A stretch of 64,000 bases of DNA from an uncultured bacterium (GCA_963699195.1 OY969420.1:570733-634732), one strand, 5' to 3'. Numbered from the stretch's first letter, positions 4,758 through 36,008 are shown. Notes: a model not told the origin generated them from the letters alone. Numbers and translations: made by a program.

Positions 4758-4761
4758 TATT

Positions 4762-10302: not shown

Positions 10303-10368
10303 CTTAAATATATGATAACAGGCCTACTTCTCTTTTAGAGATGGCACTGCTTATGGTTTAATAGATGT

Positions 10369-14269: not shown

Positions 14270-14293
14270 ATGCCTATGGTTAGGTTCTTGCAA
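14270..14293 (+). repeat. Possible degenerate copy (R0) of the cassette-boundary repeat, variant B
   Basis: ATGCCTATGGTTAGGTTCTTGCAA compared with ATAGGCTATGGTACAGGTTCAGAACA gives about 17 of 26 matches by hand alignment. Confidence 0.3.
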
Positions 14294-14388
14294 GCAAGTA
14301 AATAATATGTGCTAGATTGGGTCAATACTCAATAAATATACTAGCACCATAGAGCGACAATGCCATTACAGCAAGTAAATAGCGAGAA

Positions 14389-14409
14389 CATCCAGTCCGA
14401 GTTCCAAAC
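14389..14409 (+). repeat. Cassette-boundary repeat R1 (right half only)
   Basis: CATCCAGTCCGAGTTCCAAAC matches the right arm of the consensus. Confidence 0.65.
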
Positions 14410-14455
14410 TCTATAGTTCAGACTTCTCGTATATTTTGCTAGAATTTAGGAATAA

Positions 14456-14827
14456 TTGTATAATATGAATATGGATAGACTGCCAGACCCTAACGATTTA
14501 TCAATTGCCGCTATACATGCAAGAGTAGAGGCTGATAGACCAGCCTTAATGGCTCGCCTTGAACACGCCAGACAACATGAACTACCAGCTATAAGAGCTA
14601 GGATAGAGGCAGACAGGCCCGCTCTAATGGAACGTATAGAATGGGCAAGACAACATGAACTACCAGCTATACGCGAACGTATAGAAGCCGATCGAGCTGC
14701 TAGAGGTCTTACTAGTAGCAGTACTGCCATTAGTGCATCTGAAGCTTTTGCCGAGGCACAAGCTCATACTAGTCGAGCAAGCGCAGGTTTAAGCGTTGCT
14801 AGAACTGTAATGAATTTTTTGCGTTAA
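14456..14827 (+). CDS. Hypothetical protein containing 2.4 tandem 26-aa repeats
   Basis: 123-aa ORF. Units are HARVEADRPALMARLEHARQHELPAI, then RARIEADRPALMERIEWARQHELPAI, then RERIEADRAARG. The antisense ORF 14446..14730 is also open, so strand choice is uncertain. Confidence 0.45.
   Translation: MYNMNMDRLPDPNDLSIAAIHARVEADRPALMARLEHARQHELPAIRARIEADRPALMERIEWARQHELPAIRERIEADRAARGLTSSSTAISASEAFAEAQAHTSRASAGLSVARTVMNFLR
14516..14704 (+). repeat. 78-nt tandem repeat, about 2.4 units, inside the ORF
   Basis: CAACATGAACTACCAGCTATA recurs at 14573 and 14651, giving a 78-nt period. The units differ by scattered substitutions. Confidence 0.85.
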
Positions 14828-14862
14828 GTTAAATAATCACGCGACAAATATTTAAAATTTAT

Positions 14863-14895
14863 CTGGGCATCCAATCCGAGTTACGAACCGCTTTG
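14863..14895 (+). repeat. Cassette-boundary repeat R2
   Basis: CTGGGCATCCAATCCGAGTTACGAACCGCTTTG. It begins 36 nt after the stop of ORF 14456..14827 and ends 25 nt before the stop of minus-strand ORF 14920..15171. Confidence 0.8.
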
Positions 14896-14919
14896 TATAA
14901 TTCGTGAGTTGTTAGTTTT

Positions 14920-15171
14920 CTATGCTGCTTCTAGATGAGTAACCCGTTGTTCGAGTTTGTTATGTTGGGCTGTTTGCTCAATAATTGCCGCCTGCATCGC
15001 TGGAATCAAGTCAGTTTTTGTCTCTATTCTTTCAACTCTACCCTTTATATCTATCACATTATCATTTACTACTGACACTGCTTCAACCAATCCGTCAATT
15101 TTGCCCCTCATACCTTCTAGTAGAACTTCTGTATAATTTGGTGGGTTATTGTCTTTGGGCATATCATTCAT
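14920..15171 (-). CDS. Hypothetical small coiled-coil protein
   Basis: 83-aa ORF with a heptad-like sequence. No family recognised. Confidence 0.4.
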   Translation of the reverse strand: MNDMPKDNNPPNYTEVLLEGMRGKIDGLVEAVSVVNDNVIDIKGRVERIETKTDLIPAMQAAIIEQTAQHNKLEQRVTHLEAA

Positions 15172-15278
15172 GTTCTAGTTATTCATAGTGTATTCTATCA
15201 TAAGCTTTGCTTGAGCTTAACTCCTATATTTAAACGCCTAAACTATAGCATAAAAGGTTTGATTTAGCAGCCCTTAAC

Positions 15279-15323
15279 CTGCTTATGCTTGGCTGGGTAT
15301 AGGCTATGTCACAACTTCAGAAC
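15279..15323 (+). repeat. Cassette-boundary repeat R3 (full length, variant B-like)
   Basis: CTGCTTATGCTTGGCTGGGTATAGGCTATGTCACAACTTCAGAAC. It ends about 12 nt from the racemase stop codon. Confidence 0.85.
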
Positions 15324-15334
15324 AATTTAACTCC

Positions 15335-16024
15335 TTAGCTGTAACAGAATTCGGTAATACCGTCAGCCAATATCTCATCGGAGCTTAATATGCGCTTTCC
15401 AAGAGCCTCATAGTCTAAAACAAGGGGTAATTCAGTGCAACCAAGAATAATGGCATCAGCACCCTGATCTAACATTGACGATAGAACTTCAACATATCCT
15501 GAACGATTTGGGATCTCGCTACTTCCTGCTATAACACTACGGATAACGTTGTCACATATCTCAATCTGTTCTTCAGATGGTTTAATTAGTTCAATGTTCT
15601 TCTGTTTGAGTGATTCATCATACAATCCGGAGCTAAGTAGAACAGGCGTACCAAGTAATGCTATCTTTGAGTAACCAAATTCCTTACATTTGTCACCAAC
15701 AAGCTCAACCATAGATATAAATGGGATACTAACCTCATCTTTAATATCATTTAATAGTACGTGAACGGTATTACTTCCAATACATAAAGCTAAACAACCA
15801 GCTTTCTCTAAGCCCTTTGCAGATTCTATTAGCATTTGCTTTGCTTCTTCTAGATGCTCTTTACTTGATATGAAATCAGGTACGGGAACAGAAGCTATGA
15901 CTAGATCTGGATAATCATCATTATTCTTGGCATTATGGTTACGTTGGGCTGACGCTATAATCTTTTGATATATAAAAGCTGTAGCCTGTGGTCCTACACC
16001 CCCTAGTATTCCTATTTTCTTCAT
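15335..16024 (-). CDS. Aspartate/glutamate racemase family protein
   Basis: 229-aa ORF. GILGGVGPQAT N-terminus and two catalytic-Cys contexts (LCIGSNTVH, ILGCTELPLV). Confidence 0.85.
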   Translation of the reverse strand: MKKIGILGGVGPQATAFIYQKIIASAQRNHNAKNNDDYPDLVIASVPVPDFISSKEHLEEAKQMLIESAKGLEKAGCLALCIGSNTVHVLLNDIKDEVSIPFISMVELVGDKCKEFGYSKIALLGTPVLLSSGLYDESLKQKNIELIKPSEEQIEICDNVIRSVIAGSSEIPNRSGYVEVLSSMLDQGADAIILGCTELPLVLDYEALGKRILSSDEILADGITEFCYS

Positions 16025-17052
16025 TTACTAATGATAACAAAGTCAGCAAATTTTTCGGGGTGATATTTTTCCTGGTATTTTAAATCGTTCTCTGCCCAAA
16101 GATCCCACATCTTTGCATTTTCATTACTTCCGTCTCTTGCATGACCTCGTTCTTTAGCTATTGCCATAGGTGTATCTATCCATATCTTGAAATCATAATA
16201 TTTGGCAATATCCGGATGGTAACAAGAAATGCCCTCAATAATCAGATAGTCTACCTTTGATACAGTTATTGGTTCGCTTAGTGTATTGGTTTGCCATATA
16301 AGTTTCTGATAACTAATTGGTTTATTAATGGTGGCAGGGATAAGTACTTGTTTTTCTAGCCTATTACGATCAAAACCGCCTTTATCCCAAGAATCTTCAT
16401 TTATCTTTTCTTTAACTATAAAGTCATCAATGCTAATAACGTAGGCATTAACCAGTCTATTATTTAGTTCATTAGCGAAAGTTGTTTTACCTGAACCGCC
16501 ATATCCTTCTATGCCTATCAGTACTGGCTTATTCTCTAGGTTAGAATTCGTAACAGCTTTAACTACTTGATCTAATGAACTCTCCTTAATAGTTAATAAG
16601 ATCTTCTCAACAGTTTCTTCTAGGCTTATCGCGGAATTGTTTATTACTTTACCGAAATCAGGATTGGCAATTCCTGTATCGTAATGATGTTTGACCCTGT
16701 TAACTTCCCATTCAGTTAACTCTCTGTTTCCTCTGTTTGATTGAGCCACATCAATTCTTGGTGCTAGGGTTACAAAAATAGTATTTTTATCTTTTAGGCT
16801 ATCTATTATCTGATAATAATCTTCTTTTCCAATCACATAGCTAACAACCACGGAATGTCCACTCTCAGTTAATTTATTTATGTCTTCAACTGCTAACGCA
16901 ATACCTTTTGATATGTCTTTTGATAAATCAAAGTTCGGAATTCTGTCGTTTACGTCATCAATATCCATAAACTTAGCATTCAATTTTTTAGCTAAAGCTC
17001 TGCCTGTTGTTGTTTTACCGGAGTTTATACTCCCGCTTATGAAAATTACCAT
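16021..17052 (-). CDS. Fusion of two P-loop kinase-like domains (AAA_33/CPT-like N-terminal, uridine-kinase/PRK-like C-terminal)
   Basis: 343-aa ORF with two Walker A motifs (GSINSGKTTTG and GYGGSGKTTFA). The second half has a PRK-like IIEGI motif. Its stop overlaps the racemase start (ATGA). Confidence 0.65.
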   Translation of the reverse strand: MVIFISGSINSGKTTTGRALAKKLNAKFMDIDDVNDRIPNFDLSKDISKGIALAVEDINKLTESGHSVVVSYVIGKEDYYQIIDSLKDKNTIFVTLAPRIDVAQSNRGNRELTEWEVNRVKHHYDTGIANPDFGKVINNSAISLEETVEKILLTIKESSLDQVVKAVTNSNLENKPVLIGIEGYGGSGKTTFANELNNRLVNAYVISIDDFIVKEKINEDSWDKGGFDRNRLEKQVLIPATINKPISYQKLIWQTNTLSEPITVSKVDYLIIEGISCYHPDIAKYYDFKIWIDTPMAIAKERGHARDGSNENAKMWDLWAENDLKYQEKYHPEKFADFVIISK

Positions 17053-17076
17053 TGTCTAATAATACCAAACGAACCC

Positions 17077-19041
17077 CTACTTACTTTTAGCTAGTAGGTT
17101 TTCTCTCATTTCTTTAAATCTTTGTTTGTCAACTTCGGCTTTATTATTAGGCATAGTGTCTTTAGGCTTCTTATTTATTACATTAACAACTGGAATAACT
17201 ATTGGACTATGACCAGTATTATCAAAAAGGAAGTGGGTAGCAAAATCTCTAATTTCTATCTTAAACCTGTCATTGTCTATACGTTTAAATCTTTGCTGAA
17301 CCGCTCTTGCTAGTTCTGAGCGAAACAGCTTCATGAGTTCTGTTGAATCACGCATGGCAATAAATCCTCGACTTATAATGTCTGGACTACTGAGTAATTT
17401 GCCGGACTTACTATCTATAGTTAGAACTAACGCTAATATTCCTTCTTCGCTAAGCATTAAACGGTCTTTAAGGACAACTCCATTTACGATTGATCCAGTT
17501 TGATCTACTAGTAGACTTCCATCTGAGATCTTCTCACCAGGTTCTACGGAATGCTTAGTGAAATAAAAACTGTCTCCATTGTCTGGCAGAAGTACCTTAT
17601 TTCTGGCTACACCTTCTTCTATGCCAAGCTCAGCGTGATATCTACGTTTAAGTGTACCGGCGTGAACTGGTATGAAGAACTCAGGTCTTGTTAGTTGCAA
17701 CATTTCCCTCAGCTCATCTCTCCTAGCATGCCCTGATACGTGTAGGGGTCCACAACCATCTAATTCATGGGTGGGATGACGAAAAAGAAACACACCCTTA
17801 CTACTCAATCTGTTACTAATTTGATCATAAGATATTTCGTTTCCGGGTATAGGGGATGAACTGATTACTACTGTGTCACCCTGTTTTAGGTTTATGTACT
17901 TATGTTCACCTTGACTCATACGCTGAAGTGCGGCATTGGGTTCGCCTTGACCACCAGTACACATAACAAGTAGTTTATTCTCGTCTATATTGGCGGTTTC
18001 TTGCATTGGTATAATAGAGCCTTTAGGTACTTTTAAAACCCCTTGGCGAACAGCAATCTCAATGTAGCCAAGCATGCTTCGTCCATCTAAGCTGACTTTG
18101 CGTCCTGATGCTACTGCAGCGTCAATTATCATTTGAATACGGTTAATGTTACTAGAAAAACTGGCTACCATTATCCGTCCTGGTGAATTAGTTATAATGT
18201 CATGAAAACTCTTTTGAAGTGTATGTTCTGTTGGTGTTCTTCCTTCTGAATCAGCATAACTACTGTCACTCATTAGTAGCAGCACTCCTTCATCACCGAG
18301 TTGTTTCAAGCGAGTCTTATCACTGGTTTGATTATCTAATGGTTCTGGATCAAGACGAAAATCACCAGTAGCAATTATTCGACCAACCGGTGTATCTATA
18401 CAAATAGCTGTTGGATCGGGAATAGAATGAGTAACCCGAATGAACTCAATAAAGAATTCGCCAATCTTCAATCTTTCGTGATTATCGATGTTTACTATAT
18501 TAAGCGCTGGTTTAAAATTAGCGTCTGAGCTAAGAATATCTTCAAAGTTCCTCTCAATTACTCCAATAGTATATCTAGAACCGTATATAGGTGCTGGATA
18601 CTTGTGTACGGTATGTTTTAGTCCACCAATATGATCTAAATGCCCATGTGTGATTACATAAGCTTTAATTTTGTGCTTAATAGTGTCAAGGTAGGCGGTA
18701 TCGTTTATGGCGTAGTTAATGCCCGGCAAGTCTATGCTCAGGTCAATACCGCAATCAAGCACTAAAGCCTGGTTTTGATATTCAATAATTGCCATGTTCT
18801 TCTCGCCTACGTCTTCAAGACCACCCAAGAAAGTGATCTTTAGTTTATTAAATTTATCCGTAATGACGTTGGATTTCTGACTTTTATTAATTGTAGAGTC
18901 ACTATATTTGCTGACAATCTTTTCAGCATCATCAGTTGTGCGTCTCTGTGCTCTAATAGCAGCTCCACGTGTCTTCTTAGACGGCTTTGTATTGGCTATT
19001 GAGTTAACATTAGCCGGATTTGGTTTATGATTTTGATTCAT
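17077..19041 (-). CDS. rnj: Ribonuclease J
   Basis: 654-aa intact ORF. Metallo-beta-lactamase motif HGHLDHIGG, beta-CASP and C-terminal domain. Basic N-terminal extension. Confidence 0.9.
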   Translation of the reverse strand: MNQNHKPNPANVNSIANTKPSKKTRGAAIRAQRRTTDDAEKIVSKYSDSTINKSQKSNVITDKFNKLKITFLGGLEDVGEKNMAIIEYQNQALVLDCGIDLSIDLPGINYAINDTAYLDTIKHKIKAYVITHGHLDHIGGLKHTVHKYPAPIYGSRYTIGVIERNFEDILSSDANFKPALNIVNIDNHERLKIGEFFIEFIRVTHSIPDPTAICIDTPVGRIIATGDFRLDPEPLDNQTSDKTRLKQLGDEGVLLLMSDSSYADSEGRTPTEHTLQKSFHDIITNSPGRIMVASFSSNINRIQMIIDAAVASGRKVSLDGRSMLGYIEIAVRQGVLKVPKGSIIPMQETANIDENKLLVMCTGGQGEPNAALQRMSQGEHKYINLKQGDTVVISSSPIPGNEISYDQISNRLSSKGVFLFRHPTHELDGCGPLHVSGHARRDELREMLQLTRPEFFIPVHAGTLKRRYHAELGIEEGVARNKVLLPDNGDSFYFTKHSVEPGEKISDGSLLVDQTGSIVNGVVLKDRLMLSEEGILALVLTIDSKSGKLLSSPDIISRGFIAMRDSTELMKLFRSELARAVQQRFKRIDNDRFKIEIRDFATHFLFDNTGHSPIVIPVVNVINKKPKDTMPNNKAEVDKQRFKEMRENLLAKSK

Positions 19042-19321
19042 ATATTTCCTTTTATTATTTTTTAGTTAAATTATTAAAATTTTGATTAGCCCATGACTTA
19101 ATCGCCATATAGCTAAAAAGAATTGAAATTTCTTGTTAAGACTTAGTTATAGAAAGGTACTGATTGGGACTCCAAAAGGGTTGAAGTGGTTCATTTATCA
19201 AGAGAAAATAACTTAGTGAACACTATTATAGCAAATAATAATGCTAATGTCAATAGCCTAATCTGTTAGTGGCTAAACCTATCTCTACATAGATACTTTT
19301 CATTTCTGTTAACATAAGTTA

Positions 19322-19495
19322 ATGAAAATAGATAACATAAAGAAGCTCTATATAGCCAACTTTCTTACGGGTTTTGTCTTCTGGTATGGCATAGAGAAAT
19401 TATTCCTAAAGTCACTTGGTATAAGTACAGTTGGCATTGCCGTTAATGCTATTGCATTCATAGTTATATCAGTAATATTTAATGTCCCAACTGGC
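19322..19495 (+). pseudogene. 5' fragment of a membrane (MFS-like) transporter gene, truncated at repeat R4
   Basis: The first ~58 codons encode two hydrophobic helices (YIANFLTGFVFWYGIEKLF; VGIAVNAIAFIVISVIF). From 19496 the reading frame runs into the repeat and becomes non-membrane junk. Confidence 0.5.
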
Positions 19496-19525
19496 ATAGG
19501 CTATGGTACAGGTTCAGAACATTTT
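19491..19525 (+). repeat. Cassette-boundary repeat R4 (variant B, right part)
   Basis: CTGGCATAGGCTATGGTACAGGTTCAGAACATTTT. The 26-mer at 19496-19521 is identical to those at 20160 and 23419. Confidence 0.85.
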
Positions 19526-19545
19526 AGGTTGTATAATATGTTCAT

Positions 19546-20145
19546 ATGTCAGTGCCATTTGAAATCGAAACAGTTCCTGAAATTTATGATCCAGAGGAAG
19601 TGGCTGATTTTCTTCAACGTATGCAAACAGACGGGTTACCAGCGTTCGTTATTCACTCTACTGACTTGTCTGACGTCCTTAGCAGCATAACTGAAAATGG
19701 CTTTGATGTTCGTAGCGATGCAGCATACTTAAGTATAATTGGCCCACACACAGAAAGACGGAAAGATGATTGGCAATATCCACATATCAGCATCGCCTAT
19801 GACAAACCCATGCATGTCGATACATTACCTACCGATAACATCCTAGACCACATATACATTCACAATACTTCTAGGGGTGGCCATAATGCTCACTTTTTTG
19901 TCCCAACAGATGAGTGGCTTGCTAACAGAACCAAAAAACTTCCTGAAGGAACTCAAGAGCTTTTTGAGGCTGGGCAAGTTGATCCAAATGTCCTTATACC
20001 GATTGACCATCTTGCCCCAGTAAAGAAAGATTCTACAGTTATATTTAGACACCAAGGACGTCGTCCTCTAGCTCACTACTTCCAGAGCACAGAGTTTCCA
20101 AGGAGATCGTCTACACATCTCGGCAAAGTAAAGAGAAATAAATAA
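19546..20145 (+). CDS. Hypothetical protein (199 aa)
   Basis: Intact ORF filling the unit between R4 and R5. No family recognised. Confidence 0.55.
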   Translation: MSVPFEIETVPEIYDPEEVADFLQRMQTDGLPAFVIHSTDLSDVLSSITENGFDVRSDAAYLSIIGPHTERRKDDWQYPHISIAYDKPMHVDTLPTDNILDHIYIHNTSRGGHNAHFFVPTDEWLANRTKKLPEGTQELFEAGQVDPNVLIPIDHLAPVKKDSTVIFRHQGRRPLAHYFQSTEFPRRSSTHLGKVKRNK

Positions 20146-20184
20146 TGCTTATGCTTCGGATAGGCTATGGTACAGGTTCAGAAC
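20146..20184 (+). repeat. Cassette-boundary repeat R5 (variant B, full)
   Basis: TGCTTATGCTTCGGATAGGCTATGGTACAGGTTCAGAAC. It starts at the stop codon of ORF 19546..20145. Confidence 0.9.
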
Positions 20185-20264
20185 AATTTATACGAAATTG
20201 ATCATTGAGTTAAGTCGCCGCAGGATATGTCATATTCTTTTCTTGAATACTAATTTAACCCTTG

Positions 20265-20891
20265 CTAACAATCAACAATATATTTTAATTCAGCTATCGA
20301 AAATGCGTTAGTTATATCTACCGTAGGAACAACTTTACCAACATTATTTCGTTCGTCAAAAAGTATAATATTTGTTGCTAATTCTAATGCTGGAACATTT
20401 ATTTGTATCTCGGAAACTAGCCCATACAAATAAGTGTCACTGGCAATGTCTGGAGTCAGTACTGTCTTTTTCTTAGTTGGATTCCAAGTGATGTCCATTA
20501 ACTCCGAAAATCCATAAGAATTTGCAGGTTTCCAGAAAAAGCCTGTTATTTGCCAATATACGCCCTTACTTGTAGTAACCGCAGTCTTACAACCATAAAT
20601 GTTCCAACTTGGTGTGGGACCACCGGTAATATGTGAAAGGTTCATTGCGCTTGCTGAAGGCACTATACTACCTAGTGATTTACCTGCGATATTAATTGAT
20701 TCTCCATTAACCGAGCTACCTAATATGGGTTTTGCAGTGTCGGTTCCCATAGAACTCATAGATTTATTGTCTTGATGGTGTTTGTAGACAAATACACCTA
20801 CTCCAGCAATAGCTACTATTACTACTAGTGCTATTATCATCTCTACATGGCTAAAGCCTTTAGAGTTTAGTTTTGGTTTTTTAAATTTCAT
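20265..20891 (-). CDS. Prepilin-type N-terminal cleavage/methylation domain protein (type IV pilin-like)
   Basis: MKFKKPKLNSKGFSHVEMIIALVVIVAIAGVGVFVY is a class III signal (G/F-x-x-x-E plus hydrophobic helix). I prefer the Met at 20891 over the track start at 20966. Confidence 0.65.
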   Translation of the reverse strand: MKFKKPKLNSKGFSHVEMIIALVVIVAIAGVGVFVYKHHQDNKSMSSMGTDTAKPILGSSVNGESINIAGKSLGSIVPSASAMNLSHITGGPTPSWNIYGCKTAVTTSKGVYWQITGFFWKPANSYGFSELMDITWNPTKKKTVLTPDIASDTYLYGLVSEIQINVPALELATNIILFDERNNVGKVVPTVDITNAFSIAELKYIVDC

Positions 20892-21010
20892 AGTATTTGG
20901 ATTTACCTTATTTTTTGTTTTAAATATTATGCTTAAAATTATCCAGGAGTAACAGGGTAAAGTCAAGGAAATTTACAGGTAGTGCGCATTCGGACAGAGG
21001 TCTGAATTCT

Positions 21011-21667
21011 TTACTTATAAGTGGCTTGGTTTAAACAATTTAATACAAAGTTATCAACTTGCTGTATTGCTGATGGAGTCTTGGCGGTATCCGAGCTGAC
21101 CATTTCTCCTCCTTCAGCACTATAAGTTGTTGACCATTCGTGTGTACTCACGTAATAGTTTGCTTGAGCGAAACCATCACAACCATTTTTATCTATAAAA
21201 ACTCCACTGAAGTTGTCTGTATACTGTCCTTCGTTGTCCACTAATGTGTCGGCGCCGACCTGCATATCTTCGCCTCCATATTGAGGGTTATGTTGCACGT
21301 TGCAAGTATCACCAGGTTTCGGGACGTAACCTTGAGATTTCCAGCCTTGTTGACCTGTCGAAGTCTGGTAACAATAGGCATCAAAAGGCGCCCATGTATT
21401 TTCACTATTTTTGGATGCTTCAAGCACTTTTTGTCCAAAACCCATAACCGCCGCGGCTATTGTATGATTACGCCTAGCACTCTTTTCATAATTAAGCGCG
21501 GCTTGTTGAGGGTTAGTTTCTGGAGTAGCTGTAGGGATCTGAACTATAGCGTTGGGTACTGGCTCGCTCGAGGTGTTAGATGAACAACCTGCTAGTAATG
21601 CAGCAGCTGCGACTAGACTAGTAACGCCTGCTTTAATTCCTTTGGATGACCTTCTTCTTTCAGACAT
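21011..21667 (-). CDS. Putative lipoprotein
   Basis: 218-aa ORF with a signal peptide and lipobox (LVAAAALLAGCSS). The mature part is unrecognised. Confidence 0.6.
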   Translation of the reverse strand: MSERRRSSKGIKAGVTSLVAAAALLAGCSSNTSSEPVPNAIVQIPTATPETNPQQAALNYEKSARRNHTIAAAVMGFGQKVLEASKNSENTWAPFDAYCYQTSTGQQGWKSQGYVPKPGDTCNVQHNPQYGGEDMQVGADTLVDNEGQYTDNFSGVFIDKNGCDGFAQANYYVSTHEWSTTYSAEGGEMVSSDTAKTPSAIQQVDNFVLNCLNQATYK

Positions 21668-21783
21668 TACACAAAAACTCCCATAGAATAGTTATTTTAG
21701 AGTTATAGTATAACATTAATTTAAATTTTAGTCAATAATGCTTAAGGCACGTCTTTACCATAACGGCAAGTATATAGTTAGGC

Positions 21784-21809
21784 CATAGGCTACAGTCCGA
21801 TTTTAGAAC
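21784..21809 (+). repeat. Cassette-boundary repeat R6 (hybrid of variants A and B, degenerate)
   Basis: CATAGGCTACAGTCCGATTTTAGAAC. A possible displaced left arm AATGCTTAAGGC lies at 21736. Confidence 0.6.
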
Positions 21810-21830
21810 TTTTTAACTTCTTTCGAATCA

Positions 21831-22430
21831 TTAATTTAGTAGAATTCCAGCACCAACTATACATACTGCAATAGCAGTACTCCCTATAATTGCAGCTTTT
21901 TGTCTAGTTTTTTCATATTCAAAAGTATGAACAGTAATAATGCCAGCAAATAGATAGAGTGGAAGCACTTGAACCGAAGTTATATGCCATAAATCACCCG
22001 GAATATAGTAGAAGATAAAGCTATTGAAGAAGGCTAGGTATGACAAGTTAGCTAAGGCCTCAAAAATAATGGCGTCAACACAGAATATTGTCGCTAAAAC
22101 TAGCCCTGAAGTGACGCGTTTCTTCTTAAGAGTACCGTGCAACATATAGAGATAGAAGCCTACAGATCCCCATAAGTACAATGAATAGACTGAGGTATAG
22201 CCCTGATGAATAGGATAAATCTGGTAAAGCCAGAGCGGGTGTCGAAATAGACGGTTATATACGGTATCAAAGACTACTTCGCCAAGTACTCCTAGTGCAG
22301 CCATCGTTGTTATGTAGAGTAATGCTTTAACTGGCTGAATCTTTAAGGGCTTGCCAGCGAACCAACGATTAAATGCATAGATTACTACTAGCCAAACTGC
22401 GCTATATATAATCAGATAGAAAAGGTGCAT
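21831..22430 (-). CDS. Integral membrane protein (about 6 TM helices)
   Basis: 199-aa strongly hydrophobic ORF. Family uncertain. Confidence 0.55.
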   Translation of the reverse strand: MHLFYLIIYSAVWLVVIYAFNRWFAGKPLKIQPVKALLYITTMAALGVLGEVVFDTVYNRLFRHPLWLYQIYPIHQGYTSVYSLYLWGSVGFYLYMLHGTLKKKRVTSGLVLATIFCVDAIIFEALANLSYLAFFNSFIFYYIPGDLWHITSVQVLPLYLFAGIITVHTFEYEKTRQKAAIIGSTAIAVCIVGAGILLN

Positions 22431-22500
22431 ATTGGCTTCAATATAGCAAAAAAGTATGTTTAATAACAGATATCAAAGTGTTTATGCTGTAGACTTTATT

Positions 22501-23214
22501 TCAATAGGGACTTAGTACTAAATCTGGTTTGATAGTCCCAGTAAGTATTTGGTCTTGCTGTTTTTCAGCTTTTAGTAGCTCTTTCCCAGAAGGATCAACT
22601 AAATACGACATTAACTCTTGAGGCTCAGCGGCATTATTAACACTACATACAAATACTGAGTTTTCAACTGCTCTAGCTATAACTATATGTTCCCATATAT
22701 TATCGTAAGGCTTAATTGCATTATTGATATGAAAGATTACTTGAGCTCCTTGATCTTTAAGCTTAGCCCAAGCTAATGGGAAAAGTAGCTCTCGACATAT
22801 TTGTACTCCAAACGTTATCCCACCCATTTCATAGATTGGTAATTCATCACCTTTGTTGAAGTGGTTCTTGTCTATGTCTGATAACTCTATTTTCTTATAT
22901 ACTTGTCTATCCTTGTCATGGCTAAACATCACGACAGAGTTGTGCCAGACATCATCTATATATAAAGCTGTACCAAGTAAGCAGTAACATTTCTTTTCTT
23001 TCACTTTTTGAACAATCTCATTTATTATTTGATCTATTTGATTAGGATCTACGTCTTTTAGAAATCCTTCTTCTTCTGGAAAGTAGCCGGTTAATGCACA
23101 TTCTGGAAATACTACCCATTCTTCTGGGTTAGCGCTATTTAAGGCAGAAAGTATTTTTTGTTTATTTTCTTCAACGCCATGACTAACTACTATTTGCGCC
23201 ATTTTTATTAACAT
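22501..23214 (-). CDS. Carbon-nitrogen hydrolase (nitrilase superfamily)
   Basis: 237-aa ORF. Catalytic Glu context (VVFPECALTGY), Lys (YKKIEL) and Cys (GVQICRELLFP). Confidence 0.8.
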   Translation of the reverse strand: MLIKMAQIVVSHGVEENKQKILSALNSANPEEWVVFPECALTGYFPEEEGFLKDVDPNQIDQIINEIVQKVKEKKCYCLLGTALYIDDVWHNSVVMFSHDKDRQVYKKIELSDIDKNHFNKGDELPIYEMGGITFGVQICRELLFPLAWAKLKDQGAQVIFHINNAIKPYDNIWEHIVIARAVENSVFVCSVNNAAEPQELMSYLVDPSGKELLKAEKQQDQILTGTIKPDLVLSPY

Positions 23215-23418
23215 AACTGAATTATATCAAAAATTCAGACTAAATTTGATTTATTTTCGAACTCTTGCATAATTGTCTAATAAACTGGGGTGGTAATGGG
23301 GAAATTAAGTTAGAATGTATTATTTATCGGAAAATGGCAATTTGAGTTTTCGAACCCAATTTTATGCGTAATTAACAGGGGCGAACTGAACGAAAATAAA
23401 CCGTTTGGACTATTTCAT

Positions 23419-23446
23419 ATAGGCTATGGTACAGGTTCAGAACACT
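23419..23446 (+). repeat. Cassette-boundary repeat R7 (variant B, right part)
   Basis: ATAGGCTATGGTACAGGTTCAGAACAC. The 26-mer is identical to R4 and R5. A weak extra remnant GAGTTTTCGAACCC lies at 23344-23357. Confidence 0.85.
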
Positions 23447-23508
23447 CTAAGCGTTTAATTGGTTTTAAGATTCTAGTTATAAGCATAATCCCATATACTA
23501 TTAAGGTT

Positions 23509-24783
23509 GTGTATATAAATAAATCAAAGGAACGTATAAAATTCAATAAAAAGTTTTTTGGTATTTTTATTTTATTGCTGTTGCTTTTAACAGTGACAGC
23601 ACCGGAAGCTCTTGCTGTAGGAGGATATACCTGGCTTAATTCGACATCAGGGACACCAATGAGTGGTCTTTCTTGGTATGGCATTGCATCCTCAGCAAAC
23701 GGACAGGATGTTACAGCAGTTGCGGCGGGTGGTGGTGATGTATGGACATCGATAGATGGTGGAGTTACATGGACCGATGACGTAATAAATAATCCTAGCA
23801 TGAGTGGCCAAAATTGGGTCTCTGTTGCATCCTCGGCAAACGGACAGGATTTAGTTGCCGTAGCACAATATAATGACATATGGACATCGACTGATGGTGG
23901 AGTTACGTGGACAGACATATCACTTACCGATGTCAGTACTGGCAGCCAAGCTTGGGTGGGTGTAGCTTCGTCATCTAACGGCCAAGATTTAGCCGCAATT
24001 AATAATCCTGGAGACATATGGACATCAACAAATGGCGGAAATACATGGAACAACGATACAAGCTCCAATGTTTCTATGACCGGAAAAGCATGGGCTTCTA
24101 TTAGCTCGTCATCTAACGGCCAAGATTTAGCCGCTGTAGTTTATAACGGTGACGTTTGGACATCAACAAATGGCGGATCTTCTTGGACTGACACATCTCT
24201 GATAACTACTGCTATGCAAGGTCAACAGTGGGTGGGCGTAACTTCATCTTCAGACGCTACTCATATAACTGCCGTGGCAGCAAACAACCAGGTATGGACT
24301 TCAATAAATGGCGGTACCAGCTGGCATAATGACACAAGCAGTATTAGTGGTACCAGCCAAATTTATTATCCCGTAACCTCATCGGCTAACGGGCAAGTTG
24401 TAACTGTAGGTGCAGTCAGTGGTGACTTATGGACTTCATATGATGGTGGTACTACCTGGACCGATGATTCGACTGGTAATGCAAACTTAACTTCGCAAAG
24501 CTGGTGGGCGTTGGGATCATCGGCAGATGGCAGTAGACTTTTTGGAGCCGAAGTGGGTGGAGACCTATTCGTAGGGTATAACCCCGCACTAGTGGTTGTC
24601 CCAAGCACTACCCCGGCAACCCAAACCACTACAAGCTCTATTAAAGTAAGTGCTCCTGACACTGGTTTTGGAGAACCAGCTCAAAGTAATTATTTCAGTA
24701 TTTTCACAGTCACTACATTATCTTTAGCACTTACGCTTGCCGGCTGCTCATTTCTTAAGTTTCAAAATAAAAAGGGAAATTGA
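23509..24783 (+). CDS. Secreted BNR/Asp-box-like beta-propeller repeat protein with a probable sortase-type C-terminal anchor
   Basis: 424-aa ORF. Signal peptide, then about 8 repeats of the pattern SS(A/S)NGQDL.AV...GD(I/V)WTS.(D/N)GG.(T/S)W. C-terminus is SAPDTG plus a hydrophobic stretch plus KKGN. Confidence 0.7.
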   Translation: MYINKSKERIKFNKKFFGIFILLLLLLTVTAPEALAVGGYTWLNSTSGTPMSGLSWYGIASSANGQDVTAVAAGGGDVWTSIDGGVTWTDDVINNPSMSGQNWVSVASSANGQDLVAVAQYNDIWTSTDGGVTWTDISLTDVSTGSQAWVGVASSSNGQDLAAINNPGDIWTSTNGGNTWNNDTSSNVSMTGKAWASISSSSNGQDLAAVVYNGDVWTSTNGGSSWTDTSLITTAMQGQQWVGVTSSSDATHITAVAANNQVWTSINGGTSWHNDTSSISGTSQIYYPVTSSANGQVVTVGAVSGDLWTSYDGGTTWTDDSTGNANLTSQSWWALGSSADGSRLFGAEVGGDLFVGYNPALVVVPSTTPATQTTTSSIKVSAPDTGFGEPAQSNYFSIFTVTTLSLALTLAGCSFLKFQNKKGN

Positions 24784-24795
24784 GATTGATTAAAA

Positions 24796-24830
24796 CCGCT
24801 TATGGTTGGTATCCAGTCCGAATTCCGAAC
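24796..24830 (+). repeat. Cassette-boundary repeat R8 (variant A)
   Basis: CCGCTTATGGTTGGTATCCAGTCCGAATTCCGAAC, 13 nt after the stop of the surface-protein gene. Confidence 0.85.
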
Positions 24831-24842
24831 CAATGTAAATCA

Positions 24843-24895
24843 TTGACAGATTAGTACGTTTAATAGTACAATAATATGTACAAGGAGAAGTACAT
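24843..24895 (+). promoter_or_regulatory. Predicted yefM-yoeB promoter with TGTACA-type operator palindrome
   Basis: TTGACA (24843-24848), 18-nt spacer, TACAAT (24867-24872). The inverted repeat ATGTAC-N8-GTACAT (24876-24895) brackets the AGGAG RBS. Confidence 0.5.
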
Positions 24896-25150
24896 ATGAA
24901 AATTGCATCAATATCAAATTTCAGAAAAGAAATTAAAAGATATGTTGACGAAGTCGACAAAGACCAAGAACCATTGGTCGTAACTCGCTCAGATAACGTT
25001 TCGGTGGTGATTATACCTTTAAACACTTATAACTCTTACTCAGAAACCGAATATCTACTACGTAGTCCTGCAAACGCTGAACGGCTAAAACGATCTGTTA
25101 AGAAAGCTCAAGAAGGTCAAGTTGAAAAGCACGATCTTATAACAAAATAA
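24896..25150 (+). CDS. yefM: Type II antitoxin, Phd/YefM family
   Basis: 84-aa ORF. The ...YNSYSETEYLLRSPANAERLKRS motif closely parallels E. coli YefM. Confidence 0.88.
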   Translation: MKIASISNFRKEIKRYVDEVDKDQEPLVVTRSDNVSVVIIPLNTYNSYSETEYLLRSPANAERLKRSVKKAQEGQVEKHDLITK

Positions 25151-25152
25151 TA

Positions 25153-25413
25153 ATGAGCCGTGCATTAACCTTTACATCTGAGGCCTGGGAAGACTATTTA
25201 TACTGGCAGTCCACCGATAAACAAATACTTAAAAAGATCAATCAGCTAATAAAAGACTGTCAACGTGACCCTTTTGTTGGTGTTGGGAAGCCTGAACCGC
25301 TAAGGAACGAACTTGCAGGTTCCTGGTCACGGAGAATAAATGATGAACATCGGTTAATATATATTGTTACTGATCAAGAAATCCGTATTGCGGCTTGCCG
25401 TTATCACTACTAG
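25153..25413 (+). CDS. yoeB: Type II toxin, YoeB/Txe mRNA interferase
   Basis: 86-aa ORF. WEDYLYWQSTDKQILKKINQLIKD ... GKPEPL ... WSRRINDEHRLIY ... IAACRYHY is near-colinear with E. coli YoeB. Confidence 0.9.
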   Translation: MSRALTFTSEAWEDYLYWQSTDKQILKKINQLIKDCQRDPFVGVGKPEPLRNELAGSWSRRINDEHRLIYIVTDQEIRIAACRYHY

Positions 25414-25426
25414 CAAGAATCCAAAT

Positions 25427-25466
25427 CCGCTTATACTTGGCTGGGCATCCAGTCCGAGTTCCGAAC
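25427..25466 (+). repeat. Cassette-boundary repeat R9 (variant A, full)
   Basis: CCGCTTATACTTGGCTGGGCATCCAGTCCGAGTTCCGAAC, 14 nt after the yoeB stop. Confidence 0.9.
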
Positions 25467-25510
25467 GCTTTGATTAATAGACTAAAACGTATATATGGTA
25501 TAAAATAGAT

Positions 25511-25801
25511 ATGAAAAGTAACGTTGTTGGTAAAGAGCCAAATCCACTTGGACCTCGTGTCCGAAAGTTTCACGATAACCGGCACATTCCCTACCGAAAT
25601 CTAAATGAAATTAGAACGGCAATGGTTGAAGATGACAAGTTGCTCATTGGGTTTATTGGTTCAAGGATTATGGAGGATCACTGGCTAGAACCGGTTGCTG
25701 ATCTCTCCGCATCAGCACGTAACAATGTAGGAAAGATGGCCGAGGTGCTAGGCCAGGACATGCCGGCTTCCCGCAGCTCGTTGAGGCAGTATATGAAGTA
25801 A
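25511..25801 (+). CDS. Hypothetical protein (96 aa)
   Basis: An ORF only. GC looks higher than the surroundings by eye. Confidence 0.4.
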   Translation: MKSNVVGKEPNPLGPRVRKFHDNRHIPYRNLNEIRTAMVEDDKLLIGFIGSRIMEDHWLEPVADLSASARNNVGKMAEVLGQDMPASRSSLRQYMK

Positions 25802-25881
25802 TAGCTCCGGAGGCATCACCGTTAATAGGCACCATTGATCAAGCAATAGTCACCACAATTGCATCACGAACCGGAAAAGCC

Positions 25882-26163
25882 ATGCTTGCAACTGTCTTTA
25901 AGTATGATCGTGGCGAAGGAATTGCCCGAGCTCAGCAGGCTATAAATCAGACCCGAGCTGTTCAGATTGCTGAAGATCCTGAGTTTACTATCCCCGTGGG
26001 TTACAGGGAGCTTTCGCCCGTAGTTCACGATACATACGGTATCCTTGTTCCATTTACAGCAAATGTTCTTCAGCAGGCTATGTTCAGCGAAACATGTATT
26101 GATGACTGGGATTCGGCGCTAGCGGACGTTTTTAGAGATCTTAAGCCGGATCTAACTAGATAA
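25882..26163 (+). CDS. Hypothetical protein (93 aa)
   Basis: An ORF only. The frame is open upstream to 25723 without an ATG, so the start is uncertain. Confidence 0.4.
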   Translation: MLATVFKYDRGEGIARAQQAINQTRAVQIAEDPEFTIPVGYRELSPVVHDTYGILVPFTANVLQQAMFSETCIDDWDSALADVFRDLKPDLTR

Positions 26164-26175
26164 TATATTTCGAAA

Positions 26176-26215
26176 ACGCTTATGCTTGGCTGGGCATCCA
26201 GTCCGAGTTCAGAGC
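26176..26215 (+). repeat. Cassette-boundary repeat R10 (variant A, full)
   Basis: ACGCTTATGCTTGGCTGGGCATCCAGTCCGAGTTCAGAGC. It lies between the stops of ORF 25882..26163 (+) and ORF 26215..26541 (-). Confidence 0.9.
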
Positions 26216-26541
26216 TATCTAGAACGGCTAGCTTTTTTTAACAATTCGGGTATTATTTCGTCAAAACCTTCGTGAAGTGCTACACCCTTTTCTGTAAGCG
26301 TTGAGTTACCTAGTGGATTAGTGGGTAAGGGTTGGGTTAGACCCATATCATGCATTGATACAAGCATATTTGCTACTGCAATAACTGGGGTTTCAGTTGA
26401 TTCAGCAACTTCTTGGATAACCTGACTATTGCTACTACCTTCTGGATTAAGAGACATTGCTCCTAGCGTAGATCTTAGTAGACCTAAAAATTCTCTTTCG
26501 GTTTCTGGTGCTTTATGCCATCTACCTGGGTCTTTATTCAT
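26215..26541 (-). CDS. Hypothetical protein (108 aa)
   Basis: An ORF only. Confidence 0.4.
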   Translation of the reverse strand: MNKDPGRWHKAPETEREFLGLLRSTLGAMSLNPEGSSNSQVIQEVAESTETPVIAVANMLVSMHDMGLTQPLPTNPLGNSTLTEKGVALHEGFDEIIPELLKKASRSR

Positions 26542-26594
26542 AACTAAATAATACCATTTAAAGCAGTATTTGTAAAGCTTGCTATCAGAATATA

Positions 26595-26622
26595 CCGATT
26601 AGGTGTGGAATCCAGTCCGAAC
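26595..26622 (+). repeat. Cassette-boundary repeat R11 (variant A, diverged left arm)
   Basis: CCGATTAGGTGTGGAATCCAGTCCGAAC. Confidence 0.7.
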
Positions 26623-26645
26623 TTGTCCTTATTAAGTTGGTTTCT

Positions 26646-26852
26646 CTAACTAAGCTTCTTGCAATCATCGCATTTTGGGCGACCTGCAGTACCTTGTGTA
26701 CGGTGTTCGGGCTTTATTCGTCTACCGGCAGGGCATTTGCTTCTGTCGTGGTAGACATTCCGTTCGCCACCATATTCTGGGACGCTTGTGTGATATGGGC
26801 TTATTAACGCCATTCTAATTCCTTCCTCCCAAAGTGCTTTTATATTCACCAC
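26646..26852 (-). CDS. Hypothetical small Cys-containing protein (68 aa)
   Basis: An ORF with the pattern YHDRSKCPAGRRI ... GRPKCDDCKK, which is CxxG...CxxC-like and could bind metal. Inference only. Confidence 0.4.
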   Translation of the reverse strand: MVNIKALWEEGIRMALISPYHTSVPEYGGERNVYHDRSKCPAGRRIKPEHRTQGTAGRPKCDDCKKLS

Positions 26853-26918
26853 CCCGAGAATTATTAAAAGTACTTTTATTTAATCACAAATTAGCGGATT
26901 TATAAACTACATTTTAAA

Positions 26919-26952
26919 GCATAAGCGTAATGCGTCCTGTCTGAGTTTCGAA
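26919..26952 (+). repeat. Cassette-boundary repeat R12 (diverged)
   Basis: GCATAAGCGTAATGCGTCCTGTCTGAGTTTCGAA. The right arm resembles TCCAGTCCGAGTTCCGAA. The left arm is a near-palindromic variant of GCTTATGC. Confidence 0.5.
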
Positions 26953-27012
26953 TTTTCTAGACTATAGTTCAATATTAGGTTATGGCCGTGTCCAATACAG
27001 GCTATAATATTA

Positions 27013-27582
27013 ATGATGAGTAGGATTGTTTATGTTTTCATTGACGCATCTAACCTTTGGCAGGCTCAAAAAGCTAAAGGAAAGTTTTTAGATTTTGCGA
27101 AACTGACAAAGTATTTAAAAAATCGTTATAATGCCACTGAAATAAAAGTATTTTATTATACAGCCTATCCCGCTGAGGGTACTAGAGATTACAGCCTAGA
27201 TGGCAAACACAAATTCTATACATATCTAAAAAAAGGCTTAGGCTTTGAAGTTAGAAAAAAAGAATTAAAGCAAATCAAAGTAGATACTGATGACGGTTTA
27301 GCGATGGAAGAAAAAGGAAACATGGACGTTGAGATGACTATTGATGCAGTTCATCTGGTTAATAAATATGCATGTGCGATTCTGTTTACTGGTGACTCAG
27401 ATTTTCTGGGTTTGGTTAAGTACATTAGGGCTAGGCACAAAAAAGTTCACATTTTTTCATCGCGCAACAATGTATCATCTGAATTGCGCACTGGTGCGGA
27501 TGGCTACACTGATATATTAATGGTAGAAGATGATATATGGGGAAATGAGCTTAAATATAGAAGTCAGGGGAAAACACAGTAA
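27013..27582 (+). CDS. NYN/LabA-like domain protein (predicted RNase fold)
   Basis: 189-aa ORF. VFIDASNLW at the N-terminus and ILFTGDSDF match the NYN/DUF88 acidic motifs. Confidence 0.78.
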   Translation: MMSRIVYVFIDASNLWQAQKAKGKFLDFAKLTKYLKNRYNATEIKVFYYTAYPAEGTRDYSLDGKHKFYTYLKKGLGFEVRKKELKQIKVDTDDGLAMEEKGNMDVEMTIDAVHLVNKYACAILFTGDSDFLGLVKYIRARHKKVHIFSSRNNVSSELRTGADGYTDILMVEDDIWGNELKYRSQGKTQ

Positions 27583-27588
27583 TTAAAA

Positions 27589-27610
27589 CGACCCTCCGCA
27601 AAGAGGGTCG
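27589..27610 (+). other. GC-rich hairpin just after the NYN gene
   Basis: CGACCCTC-CGCAAA-GAGGGTCG. On the plus strand it has an A-tract before it and no T-tract after it, so a terminator role on the plus strand is doubtful. Confidence 0.35.
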
Positions 27611-27750
27611 TCCTTAGATGTGATTCCCTTTCAGTTCGAAAGGTGAACTAAAAGACTATATTATTGTAGCATGCACCATAAAAACTAGCAATATCATATT
27701 ATTGACAAATAATATTTAATATTATGAAAAGATTATGTCTATATGTCAAA

Positions 27751-27785
27751 CCGCTTATGCTTGGCTGGGTATATGGGATTCGAAC
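27751..27785 (+). repeat. Cassette-boundary repeat R13 (terminal copy, with tRNA T-loop-like right arm)
   Basis: CCGCTTATGCTTGGCTGGGTATATGGGATTCGAAC. The reverse complement contains GGTTCGAATCC followed 13 nt later by CCA. Confidence 0.85.
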
Positions 27786-27895
27786 CAAGGGCTGAGTTAC
27801 TTCCAGTGATGGGATAATCACCCACTATAGATATTCCAAAACTACTCAACATATGTTATACTTTACAAAATAAGTTAAATATTGGGCAGGATTTA

Positions 27896-28436
27896 TTGGT
27901 GTCTAACACTGCAATTGATCAGATTAATAAAAAATATATGAAGCCACAAGTTGTCGATGTACACAGTGGTGATACCGTTAAAGTCCACCAAAAAATTCGC
28001 GAGGGAAACAAAGAACGAACTCAGATATTCCAAGGTTTGGTTATTAGAGTTGACCGCAAAAATAGTCACACTAGCCGAATCACGGTTCGAAGAATCTCTA
28101 GTGATATAGGTGTTGAGAAAAGTTTCTTACTTCACAGTCCGCTAATTCTAAAAGTTGAAGTTAGTAAAAAGAAGCAAGGTTCGCCGAAACTATCTTTCAT
28201 ACATGCGTGAGAGAACAGGTAAGGCCACAAGACTAAGTGCAATTGGATTTGATAGTGCCGCGGTTAATACTATCCCTGAACCAGAAGTTTTAGAGCCAGA
28301 AGTTGAAAAAGCAGAAGAGTCTACAGAAGAAGTAGTGGAAGTCAAAGAGGCAGTATCTGAAGAGCCTAAAAAAGAAGAGAAAGTTGAAGCTGAAGCTGAA
28401 GCCGAACCGACTGAAGAAAAATCAGACAAAGAATAG
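27896..28436 (+). pseudogene. rplS: 50S ribosomal protein L19, split by one +1 frameshift near 28163; carries a long acidic C-terminal tail
   Basis: The frame starting at 27896 encodes the L19 core up to ...LILKVEV. The rest (VKRSKVRRNYLSYMRERTGKATRL...) continues in the frame of ORF 28155..28436. Removing base 28163 restores one ORF. Confidence 0.8.
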
Positions 28437-35894: not shown

Positions 35895-36008
35895 CTCTAA
35901 TATTGAACCATTATAAACTATCCTTAAGCCTATTATATTGATTTAGCTGCACTTAGGCTGTCAGATTCATGAAATTATCTTAAAATTAATACCTAAACTA
36001 TCTGTAAA

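Follow-up and report, generated by a model that had tools for sequence, protein, structure and literature searches.

The repeat array

The 64,000-nucleotide (nt) stretch of DNA analysed here, from an uncultured bacterium (GCA_963699195.1 OY969420.1:570733-634732) and termed the window in what follows, carries between 14 and 28 kb, beside the gene rplS, an array of short repeats with small genes between them. A sequence-only reading of the window had listed 13 copies of the repeat and three weaker remnants. A profile built from six copies and run with nhmmer over the whole window recovered 11 copies with expectation (E) values of no more than 0.15, all in one orientation, as had been claimed (the plus strand), and all within 14389-27799: six have E-values of 2.6e-14 to 9.5e-10, four of 2.5e-4 to 0.017, and the copy at 14389 has 0.15. 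The copies at 26595 and 26919 are weak (E > 2), yet aligned with the family in the repeat search. The repeat family is accordingly real, with 11 statistically supported copies and two weak ones; the remnants, near 14270, 20990 and 23344, were without statistical support in the profile search. In the remaining ~50 kb of the window the profile gave no match better than E ~8, in keeping with the earlier statement that the repeat is confined to this region, and a second copy of the whole array was looked for elsewhere in the window and not found. The motif GTTCNGAAC occurs four times, compared to an expectation of 0.54.

Eight of the 13 copies lie 0-40 nt from a stop codon, so that the described proximity to stop codons holds for these; the further statement that every copy is intergenic does not hold for the origin of 19491, which lies at the breakpoint of a truncated gene. 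Since two independent short-read contigs (run ERR11523675) reproduce 15671-19524 and 26181-27878 at 100% identity, the array is real rather than an assembly artefact. Each of these contigs ends or starts within a repeat, indicating that the repeats are long enough to stop short-read assembly.

In the following list 'core' denotes a 9-nt segment, 'arm' the 20-nt segment that follows it and '8-mer' the sequence GCTTATGC, which often adjoins the core in internal sites. The earlier description of variants A and B, and of hybrids between them (15279, 21784), holds; variant B has the degenerate core GGCTATGG, and copy 15279 has both cores.

14389..14409, plus strand: partial site, variant A arm only (CATCCAGTCCGAGTTCCAAAC), without core or 8-mer; E = 0.15
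14863..14888, plus strand: partial site, core remnant CTGGG and variant A arm; E = 0.0015
15279..15323, plus strand: full site, GCTTATGCT and core TGGCTGGGT, a second, degenerate core and an A/B hybrid arm, 5 nt longer; E = 6e-11
19491..19520, plus strand: partial site, variant B, degenerate core and arm, the left flank being a truncated gene; E = 2.5e-4
20146..20184, plus strand: full site, variant B, directly after the stop codon of the open reading frame (ORF) at 19546-20145; E = 7e-10
21784..21809, plus strand: partial site, B/A hybrid arm; E = 0.017
23419..23443, plus strand: partial site, variant B; E = 0.0016
24796..24830, plus strand: full site, variant A, core with a 5-nt deletion; E = 9.5e-10
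25427..25466, plus strand: full site, variant A (GCTTATACT, TGGCTGGGC and ATCCAGTCCGAGTTCCGAAC), core and arm identical in metagenome contig L130; E = 4e-13
26176..26215, plus strand: full site, variant A; E = 2.6e-14
26595..26622, plus strand: degenerate, weak site, member of the repeat-search family; E = 2.9
26917..26953, plus strand: site with inverted 10-mer (AAGCATAAGC), 4 nt, then degenerate core and arm; 'L2' class, also in other genomes
27751..27787, plus strand: terminal site, GCTTATGCT, core and a true T-arm of the glutamine transfer RNA (tRNA-Gln), beside rplS; E = 2.3e-10

Genes between the repeats

The genes of the array region are as follows.

14456-14827, plus strand: cargo ORF
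14920-15171, minus strand: cargo ORF
15335..19041, minus strand: racemase, double P-loop kinase and RNase J (Pfam), probably core genes between sub-arrays
19322..19498, plus strand: MFS-type transporter, N-terminal 59 codons of ~400 amino acids (aa), cut where a site begins
19546-20145, plus strand: cargo ORF, ORFan
20265-20966, minus strand: cargo ORF
21011-21667, minus strand: cargo ORF
21831-22430, minus strand: cargo ORF
22501-23214, minus strand: CN_hydrolase
23509-24783, plus strand: BNR-like
24896-25150, plus strand: YefM
25153-25413, plus strand: YoeB
25511-25801, plus strand: cargo ORF
25882-26163, plus strand: cargo ORF
26215-26541, minus strand: cargo ORF
27013-27582, plus strand: NYN

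Pfam confirmed the gene calls made previously (racemase, kinase, RNase J, CN_hydrolase, YefM, YoeB and NYN), and the remaining ORFs of the array region had no Pfam family. For the ORF at 19546-20145 a search of 5.8 billion proteins gave no relative, and for YoeB there was no exact match elsewhere; the NYN gene occurs elsewhere only on one 100% identical contig. Models of defence systems found only generic P-loop and NYN matches. The cassette-like layout that had been proposed is borne out, with sites in a single orientation separating units of 0.3-1.6 kb that carry accessory or orphan cargo. The median spacing of units is ~700 nt, with one interval of 4.2 kb. That interval, containing the racemase, kinase and RNase J (rnj) genes, had been counted as a unit and is more likely core DNA between sub-arrays, with a truncated gene at its boundary. 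Homologues of the kinase lie in tRNA-Gln-linked regions of two of the loci considered below (L047 and L058).

In an exhaustive protein search the truncated gene, ORF 19322, found relatives for its first 59-61 residues only, these being the N-termini of transporters of 385-410 aa (E to 4e-16). The match stops at ...NVPTG, encoded by CCAACTGGC, at the start of site 19491, and the remainder of the gene is not in the window. A remnant of this kind would be expected after recombination at a secondary site resembling the core.

Two of the cargo ORFs are internally repetitive. The BNR-like ORF at 23509-24783 has six ~138-nt repeats (propeller blades) at 23684-24474 and a hydrophobic tail at its end; the ORF at 14456-14827 contains a 78-nt tandem duplication (14510-14665), giving the repeated peptide ...IEADRPALM...ARQHELPAI.

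Origin of the site in the 3' end of tRNA-Gln

On the plus strand the core reads TGGCTGGGG; its reverse complement, CCCCAGCCA, is formed by the final nine bases of tRNA-Gln, the encoded CCA among them. This identification follows from ARAGORN, by whose predictions in Saccharibacteria and Patescibacteria loci tRNA-Gln (CTG or TTG) has its 3' end exactly at the 17-mer motif GCTTATGCTTGGCTGGG. The sequence immediately past the tRNA gene is GCTTATGC(T), from which the 8-mer of the internal sites will be recognised. The terminal copy of the window, when reverse complemented, reads GGTTCGAATCCCATATACCCAGCCA, that is, the T-arm and acceptor end of the tRNA: positions 27762-27787 are the 3' 26 nt of tRNA-Gln on the minus strand, matching positions 50-75 of the tRNA-Gln profile with E = 0.006. 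A full decayed tRNA at 27751 was considered and rejected, the match being limited to those profile positions.

In the internal copies the core is followed by an arm of constant length, 20 nt, which in many species is CTAGTGGACGTACTTCGAAC and in variant A of the window CATCCAGTCCGAGTTCCGAAC; further variants are alike in having a central ACG and in ending with TTNGAAC. Aligned with the tRNA, the arm corresponds to the T-arm apart from a 5-nt insertion, and a site bearing this insertion would therefore be unable to replace the tRNA's own 3' end. What the resident tRNA and the internal sites share is the core only, plus the 8-mer where present. Because the arm departs from the T-arm in this manner, exchange would take place at or in the core, and in more than 15 partial copies homology begins sharply at TGGCTGGGG. 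This origin of the repeat, in a tRNA-Gln 3' end joined to a T-arm-like arm, had been overlooked in the sequence-only reading, and it places the array nearer to tRNA-gene islands than to integrons.

In a minority of sites, and beside some tRNA genes, the 10-mer next to the core is inverted (AAGCATAAGC), with a spacer of 1-4 nt. The inverted form was seen at window 26917-26926 and in L035, L073, L088, L105 and L118; the motif of the 10-mer is near-palindromic (GCWTAWGC).

Distribution, polarity and cargo among Saccharibacteria

Scanning one genome per species with GCTTATGCTTGGCTGGG, a pattern that contains the 8-mer and core, returned at least 116 stretches (8-kb blocks, designated L and a number), where ~69 matches would be expected by chance in the collection; at least 60 of the 116 listed were labelled Saccharibacteria, Saccharimonadales or Patescibacteria. 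Counts, orientations and absences reported for these loci apply among the matches listed. In 16 of 16 loci with both an intact tRNA-Gln and internal sites, the sites lie downstream of the tRNA 3' end in the same orientation. The core-plus-arm pattern identified 83 internal sites in 1.09 Mb of fetched loci and 3 in shuffled sequence. Where a locus has two or more copies, these are uniform in orientation in 18 cases and mixed in 2.

In these other loci successive sites are spaced by a median of 618 nt (range 333-3383, n = 47), and the units so delimited hold one or two accessory genes, mostly one intact gene (63 ORFs in 47 units). Fifty of the 63 ORFs are on the tRNA-sense strand (p = 3e-6). With four fifths of the cassette genes sharing the direction of the tRNA, read-through from the tRNA promoter may aid their expression; the same strand bias led us to reject tRNA-primed reverse transcription as the source of the units. 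Cargo families include NUDIX, HAD, GNAT, APH(6), HD, ParE, M23, HIT and ASCH, alongside many proteins without a family. No recombinase family was present among 25 of the 41 Pfam families found (57 cargo ORFs). A unit adjoining tRNA-Gln in L039 contains, at 5527-6150, a fragment of an rve-type (IS3/IS481-like) transposase.

Comparison between genomes

The two sides of the tRNA-Gln gene, whose 5' neighbours are housekeeping genes, behave very differently when loci are compared. On the 5' side, the pairs L011/L027, L012/L097, L032/L105 and L073/L097 align over 1-2 kb at 67-74% identity. On the 3' side, in the same pairs and in many unrelated ones, only sites of 39-50 nt are common, at 88-100% identity; L088 and L105, for example, have 41 nt in common at 100%. 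The core and arm of window variant A are identical in L130 and agree at 27 of 29 positions in L096, with flanks that do not align. Since the 3' side shares sites only, gene content turns over completely from the tRNA end, and the sites would therefore be either held constant or spread horizontally during that turnover.

The closest available relative of the window, L118 (RNase J 76% identical), shows that the core can follow a different tRNA. Its tRNA-Arg(GCG) gene ends ...GGTGCACCA, followed by CGCTTATGCT, and a copy ~2.3 kb downstream reads AAGCATAAGCA-TGGTGCATC-GCAGTCAGTGAAGTCAGAAC; the tRNA-Arg 3' end is thus TGGTGCACC at the gene and TGGTGCATC in the copy, with the 8-mer and the kind of arm seen elsewhere. 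Further arm copies lie at 5047 and 4432, giving an array at 4400-8160 with rnj at its far end, and the genes between the copies, all on the tRNA-sense strand, encode PemK, an RHH pair, Peptidase_S51, GrpB and an AAA protein. Since the core varies with the anchoring tRNA and the arm and 8-mer stay, the site behaves like an attachment site, not like a regulatory or structural repeat.

The rnj loci of L118-L121 (44 kb) contained no copy better than E ~0.4, the faint arm-like copies of L118 coming from a pattern search, and L132-L134 (64 kb) contained no core-plus-arm sites. An RNase J identical to that of the window occurs on only one other contig, a 100% copy; the nearest relatives, 71-76% identical in RNase J, have different rnj neighbourhoods, and L137 and L138 are 99.95% identical without indels.

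Known repeat classes considered

Similarity of the array to integrons, and to clusters of attC sites lacking an integrase (CALINs), had been proposed from the layout, and an imperfect hairpin in variant A had been likened to folded attC sites. Folding of seven sites as single strands, in both orientations (14 folds), gave z values of -1.3 to +1.2, no better than shuffled sequence, so that the hairpin is not significant; the analogy with folded sites had rested on that one variant only. Pairs of RYYYAAC...GTTRRRY boxes at 35-125 nt spacing were absent from both strands of 14.2-27.9 kb (0 found, 2.7 expected), as already noted in the sequence-only reading, so that the sites are not canonical attC. 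Rfam scans of the window and the region, run both at the gathering threshold and with E-values up to 10, yielded neither attC nor another relevant family. Lacking a folding signal, paired R boxes and an Rfam match, the repeat is not an attC array, a hairpin repeat of the repetitive extragenic palindromic (REP) type or a terminator; the integron and CALIN identities were consequently dropped, the sites, moreover, being of 29-45 nt, against ~55-140 nt for the imperfect palindrome of attC.

Other identities fared no better. REP elements, bacterial interspersed mosaic elements (BIMEs) and miniature inverted-repeat transposable elements (MITEs) were rejected since there is no significant hairpin and the two site ends are unrelated; dispersal in both orientations was not seen in the window or in 18 of the 20 multi-copy loci. 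Xer-dependent dif modules were rejected for want of dyad symmetry (by inspection) and because of the single orientation throughout. A promoter or dif-like reading of the 8-mer was dropped by eye as a poor fit.

Interpretation

We lean, with modest confidence, towards reading the region as an integron-like cassette array assembled through site-specific recombination at the 3' end of a tRNA gene, with the enzyme supplied from another locus. The suggestion of a different site-specific recombination system, made in the sequence-only reading as an alternative to integrons, is therefore the part of that interpretation that remains the best. The recombination site would comprise the 9-nt core and the 20-nt arm, often with the 8-mer, the arm having descended from a T-arm and gained its 5-nt insertion. 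Small circular units of one or two genes, each carrying one such site, would recombine with the core at the tRNA end or with the core of a resident site; insertion just past the CCA would leave the tRNA intact and push older units outward. Where the site comes from, how it is distributed and oriented, the size of the units, their variable content and the truncated gene are all shown by the sequences; we infer the circular intermediates and the crossover within the core, as well as a putative recombinase that acts in trans, since it is not encoded in or beside the arrays. The array of the window would be an orphaned, rearranged example, its anchor having shrunk to 26 nt from the tRNA 3' end, next to rplS; two site variants and their hybrids are mixed in it, and one insertion at a core-like sequence would have truncated the MFS gene.

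A number of results weigh against this reading, among them those concerning the recombinase. The XerD query used retrieves its own structure in the PDB (1A0P, E = 2e-190) and also detects IntI4, XerH and XerA, and with it no relative was found among all stop-to-stop ORFs of the window and 117 loci. Pfam scans of 20 ORFs flanking the array, which are housekeeping or uncharacterised, of 20 ORFs of the region and of the genes 5' of the tRNA likewise revealed no recombinase linked to the arrays, in agreement with the earlier statement that the window has none in view. A resolvase search, with an approximate query sequence, gave one match among the loci, a 506-aa serine recombinase in L050 whose Resolvase domain was confirmed by Pfam and which lies 2 kb from two true partial tRNA-Gln copies (at 2548 and 2952), with a Fic gene and a weak terS-like gene beside it. 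The protein belongs to a widespread family of 959 members, also represented in L132, L133 and L134 (~10000-11610), where the 3' end of the recombinase gene overlaps tRNA-Met(CAT) at the edge of a non-housekeeping stretch. The L050 protein was rejected as the enzyme of the arrays, its family sitting at tRNA-Met where core-plus-arm sites are lacking; it nevertheless shows that Saccharibacteria possess recombinases targeting tRNA genes, none of them linked to the arrays. Three scans of viral contigs found no phage carrying the site, only a chance match and phage tRNA-Gln genes, and no phage or plasmid with the site was found.

Other unfavourable points concern the sites and the cargo. About half of the internal sites are without the 8-mer and partial copies occur amid the arrays, so that simple serial insertion is not a full explanation; the inverted 8-mer (e.g. 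at window 26917) is also a poor fit. The frequency of sites at tRNA genes is overestimated, since the pattern used for fetching was itself the 8-mer and core. The window is without an intact tRNA-Gln, ARAGORN finding only a tRNA-Leu at 51991, and its gene orientation is mixed, 9:8. No more than two gene families were shared by arrays from more than one species, and one recurrent one-gene unit (63% identity; L014 2015-2272 and L050 2567-2917) has opposite orientations relative to the sites. Finally, neither circular cassettes nor differences in presence or absence between strains were observed, the nearest relatives being 71-76% identical in RNase J.

Several observations on these recombinase loci may be recorded here. 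At L050 2548-7664 a 400-nt unit for a coiled-coil protein lies between the two partial tRNA-Gln copies; unit and copies, together with the serine recombinase, the weak terS-like gene and the Fic gene, may form a small satellite-like element. The neighbours of the L133 recombinase include a reverse transcriptase, a Replic_Relax protein, DUF6829 and an IS1595 transposase, and in L132 a 15-nt match suggests an element of ~6.5 kb.

Among other explanations, an unlikely one, although the least unlikely of those considered, is that ordinary integrative elements of a phage-like, tycheposon-like or conjugative type, each with its own integrase, repeatedly entered at tRNA-Gln and later decayed. The sites would then be att scars left among pieces of cargo, the small units never having been mobile. 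Tandem integrations and scattered partial tRNA copies are documented in the tRNA islands of Prochlorococcus (10.1101/2020.12.28.424599). True partial tRNA-Gln copies do occur at window 27762-27787 and at L050 2548 and 2952, the latter 2 kb from a recombinase and a weak terS-like gene, and Saccharibacteria contain elements with large serine recombinases at tRNA-Met. Against this, the 116 listed blocks contain no tyrosine integrase or fragment of one and a single serine recombinase, the units are consistently small (median 0.6 kb), a single intact gene being their usual content, and most internal sites are not copies of the tRNA but belong to a separate family, whose constant 5-nt insertion and 88-100% conservation between species are not to be expected from random decay. 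We think it somewhat less likely again that a small non-coding element has spread or been kept for a function of its own, such as transcript ends, RNA processing or the binding of a chromosome-organising protein, with the genes as its ordinary neighbours. The strong orientation bias, the nearness of eight of the 13 copies in the window to a stop codon (40 nt or less) and the far better conservation of sites than of their surroundings would suit such an element; the folding and Rfam results would not, nor would the clustering of copies, which are absent from the other 50 kb and faint or absent in L118-L121 and L132-L134. It would also have to accommodate a core that switches with the anchoring tRNA (Gln or Arg), a gene broken at site 19491, and inter-site content wholly different between species when the other side of the tRNA is syntenic.

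The absence of a recombinase from the XerD search of window and loci would be in keeping with a third explanation, in which the sites are short homology anchors, with units swapped by RecA after natural transformation and no dedicated recombinase. Minimal mobile elements of Neisseria swap via homology anchors in this way, and Saccharibacteria are reported to be competent. The window encodes a pilus ATPase (T2SSE, 10369-11970) and a pilin-like protein (N_methyl, 47016-47543). Anchors of 29-40 nt are, however, very short for homologous exchange, and a conserved arm of constant length, the abrupt limit of the sites at the CCA, their orientation with respect to the tRNA and the change of core with the target tRNA would all go unaccounted for; we regard this explanation as improbable, the most so of the three. 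Irrespective of it, the pilus or secretion ATPase and the pilin-like protein, with its N-terminal methylation motif, fit a capacity for DNA uptake.

Relation to known systems

If the array is indeed a product of site-specific recombination at a tRNA end, its function is best read as that of an integron analogue and its ancestry as nearer to tRNA-gene islands. Like chromosomal integrons and CALINs, the arrays have units of ~0.6 kb with one or two genes, sites in one orientation that are homogeneous within a genome, and toxin-antitoxin pairs, small enzymes and orphan genes as cargo; in the loci outside the window genes point mostly one way from a fixed insertion point, and new units seem to enter at one end. 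Unit size fits this comparison, and gene orientation is 50:13 in the other loci and 9:8 in the window. In contrast to integrons, the sites are of 29-40 nt, without hairpin or R boxes, insertion is at a tRNA CCA end rather than at attI beside intI, there is no IntI-type recombinase near the arrays, and the host lineage is the Saccharibacteria.

In Prochlorococcus, tycheposon islands are hypervariable regions lying directly 3' of a tRNA gene, with direct repeats of the tRNA 3' end, newer insertions that push older ones outward, and accessory cargo (10.1101/2020.12.28.424599). The arrays resemble these islands in their accessory cargo and in the presumed outward displacement of older units; the island abuts an intact tRNA 3' end in the 16 of 16 other loci, the window keeping only the 3' 26 nt; as to the repeats, the 9-nt core is identical to the tRNA, the arm is T-arm-like with its 5-nt insertion, and true partial tRNAs are few. 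Tycheposons, however, are several kb in size and encode a tyrosine or large serine recombinase and replication genes, whereas the units here are of ~0.6 kb, searches of loci and cargo having found neither integrase nor replication genes inside them. Nor do the internal sites here match the tRNA beyond 9 nt, next to which they carry a distinct, conserved arm.

Two further systems bear comparison. The cis-mobilizable elements of Streptococcus thermophilus are integrase-less units, flanked by att sites, that lie in tandem at the end of a conserved gene and are presumed to be moved by an enzyme encoded elsewhere. The arrays resemble such accretions in their integrase-less tandem units and presumed distant enzyme; they differ in that the searches revealed no element with a cognate integrase, in the far smaller size and greater number of the units, and in sites that are conserved class-wide. 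The pdif modules of Acinetobacter plasmids, whose 28-bp XerC/XerD sites have an 11-6-11 design and alternate in orientation, are also small, recombinase-less modules of accessory or toxin-antitoxin genes with short sites; here, by contrast, the sites are derived from tRNA, lack dyad symmetry and have one orientation.

In our search of the literature on Saccharibacteria and Patescibacteria, arrays of this kind were not found described. That hypervariable islands can contain repeats originating from a tRNA end is already known; the division into units as small as those of integrons, the arm conserved within the site and the lack of a local recombinase across a bacterial class appear to be new.

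Other features of the window

Outside the array, rplS (27896-28436) reads in two overlapping frames (27896-28210 and 28155-28436); as a frameshift in an essential gene, this is probably an assembly indel error. An M1 aminopeptidase gene (pepN-like, 29036-31648, minus strand) is divided among three ORFs (ERAP1_C, ERAP1_C and Peptidase_M1), either as a pseudogene or through indel errors. The 11 kb at 35900-47000 contain short ORFs only, none above 200 aa, which is unusual in such a compact genome and could be due to frameshifts, many small genes or non-coding DNA.

Significance

Saccharibacteria are ultra-small epibionts with genomes below 1 Mb, in which gene gain and loss are little understood. 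A broader proposal, which we hold more tentatively and at less than even weight, is that they possess a cassette system of their own, independent of integrons, in which one-gene units are captured and shuffled at the CCA end of tRNA-Gln (in some lineages tRNA-Arg) by a putative recombinase, encoded elsewhere in the genome, that recognises the tRNA end and the 20-nt arm; the arrays would then be the main store of flexible genes. Since they break short-read assemblies, the flexible genes of the group are probably under-represented in metagenome-assembled genomes. A site of 29-40 nt whose core follows its target provides a searchable handle, also towards the missing recombinase. If the proposal is true, conserved cassette arrays that extend in one direction from a tRNA end, and occur in dozens of species, would constitute a compact mechanism of gene flux, and a second, independent solution to the problem that integrons solve.

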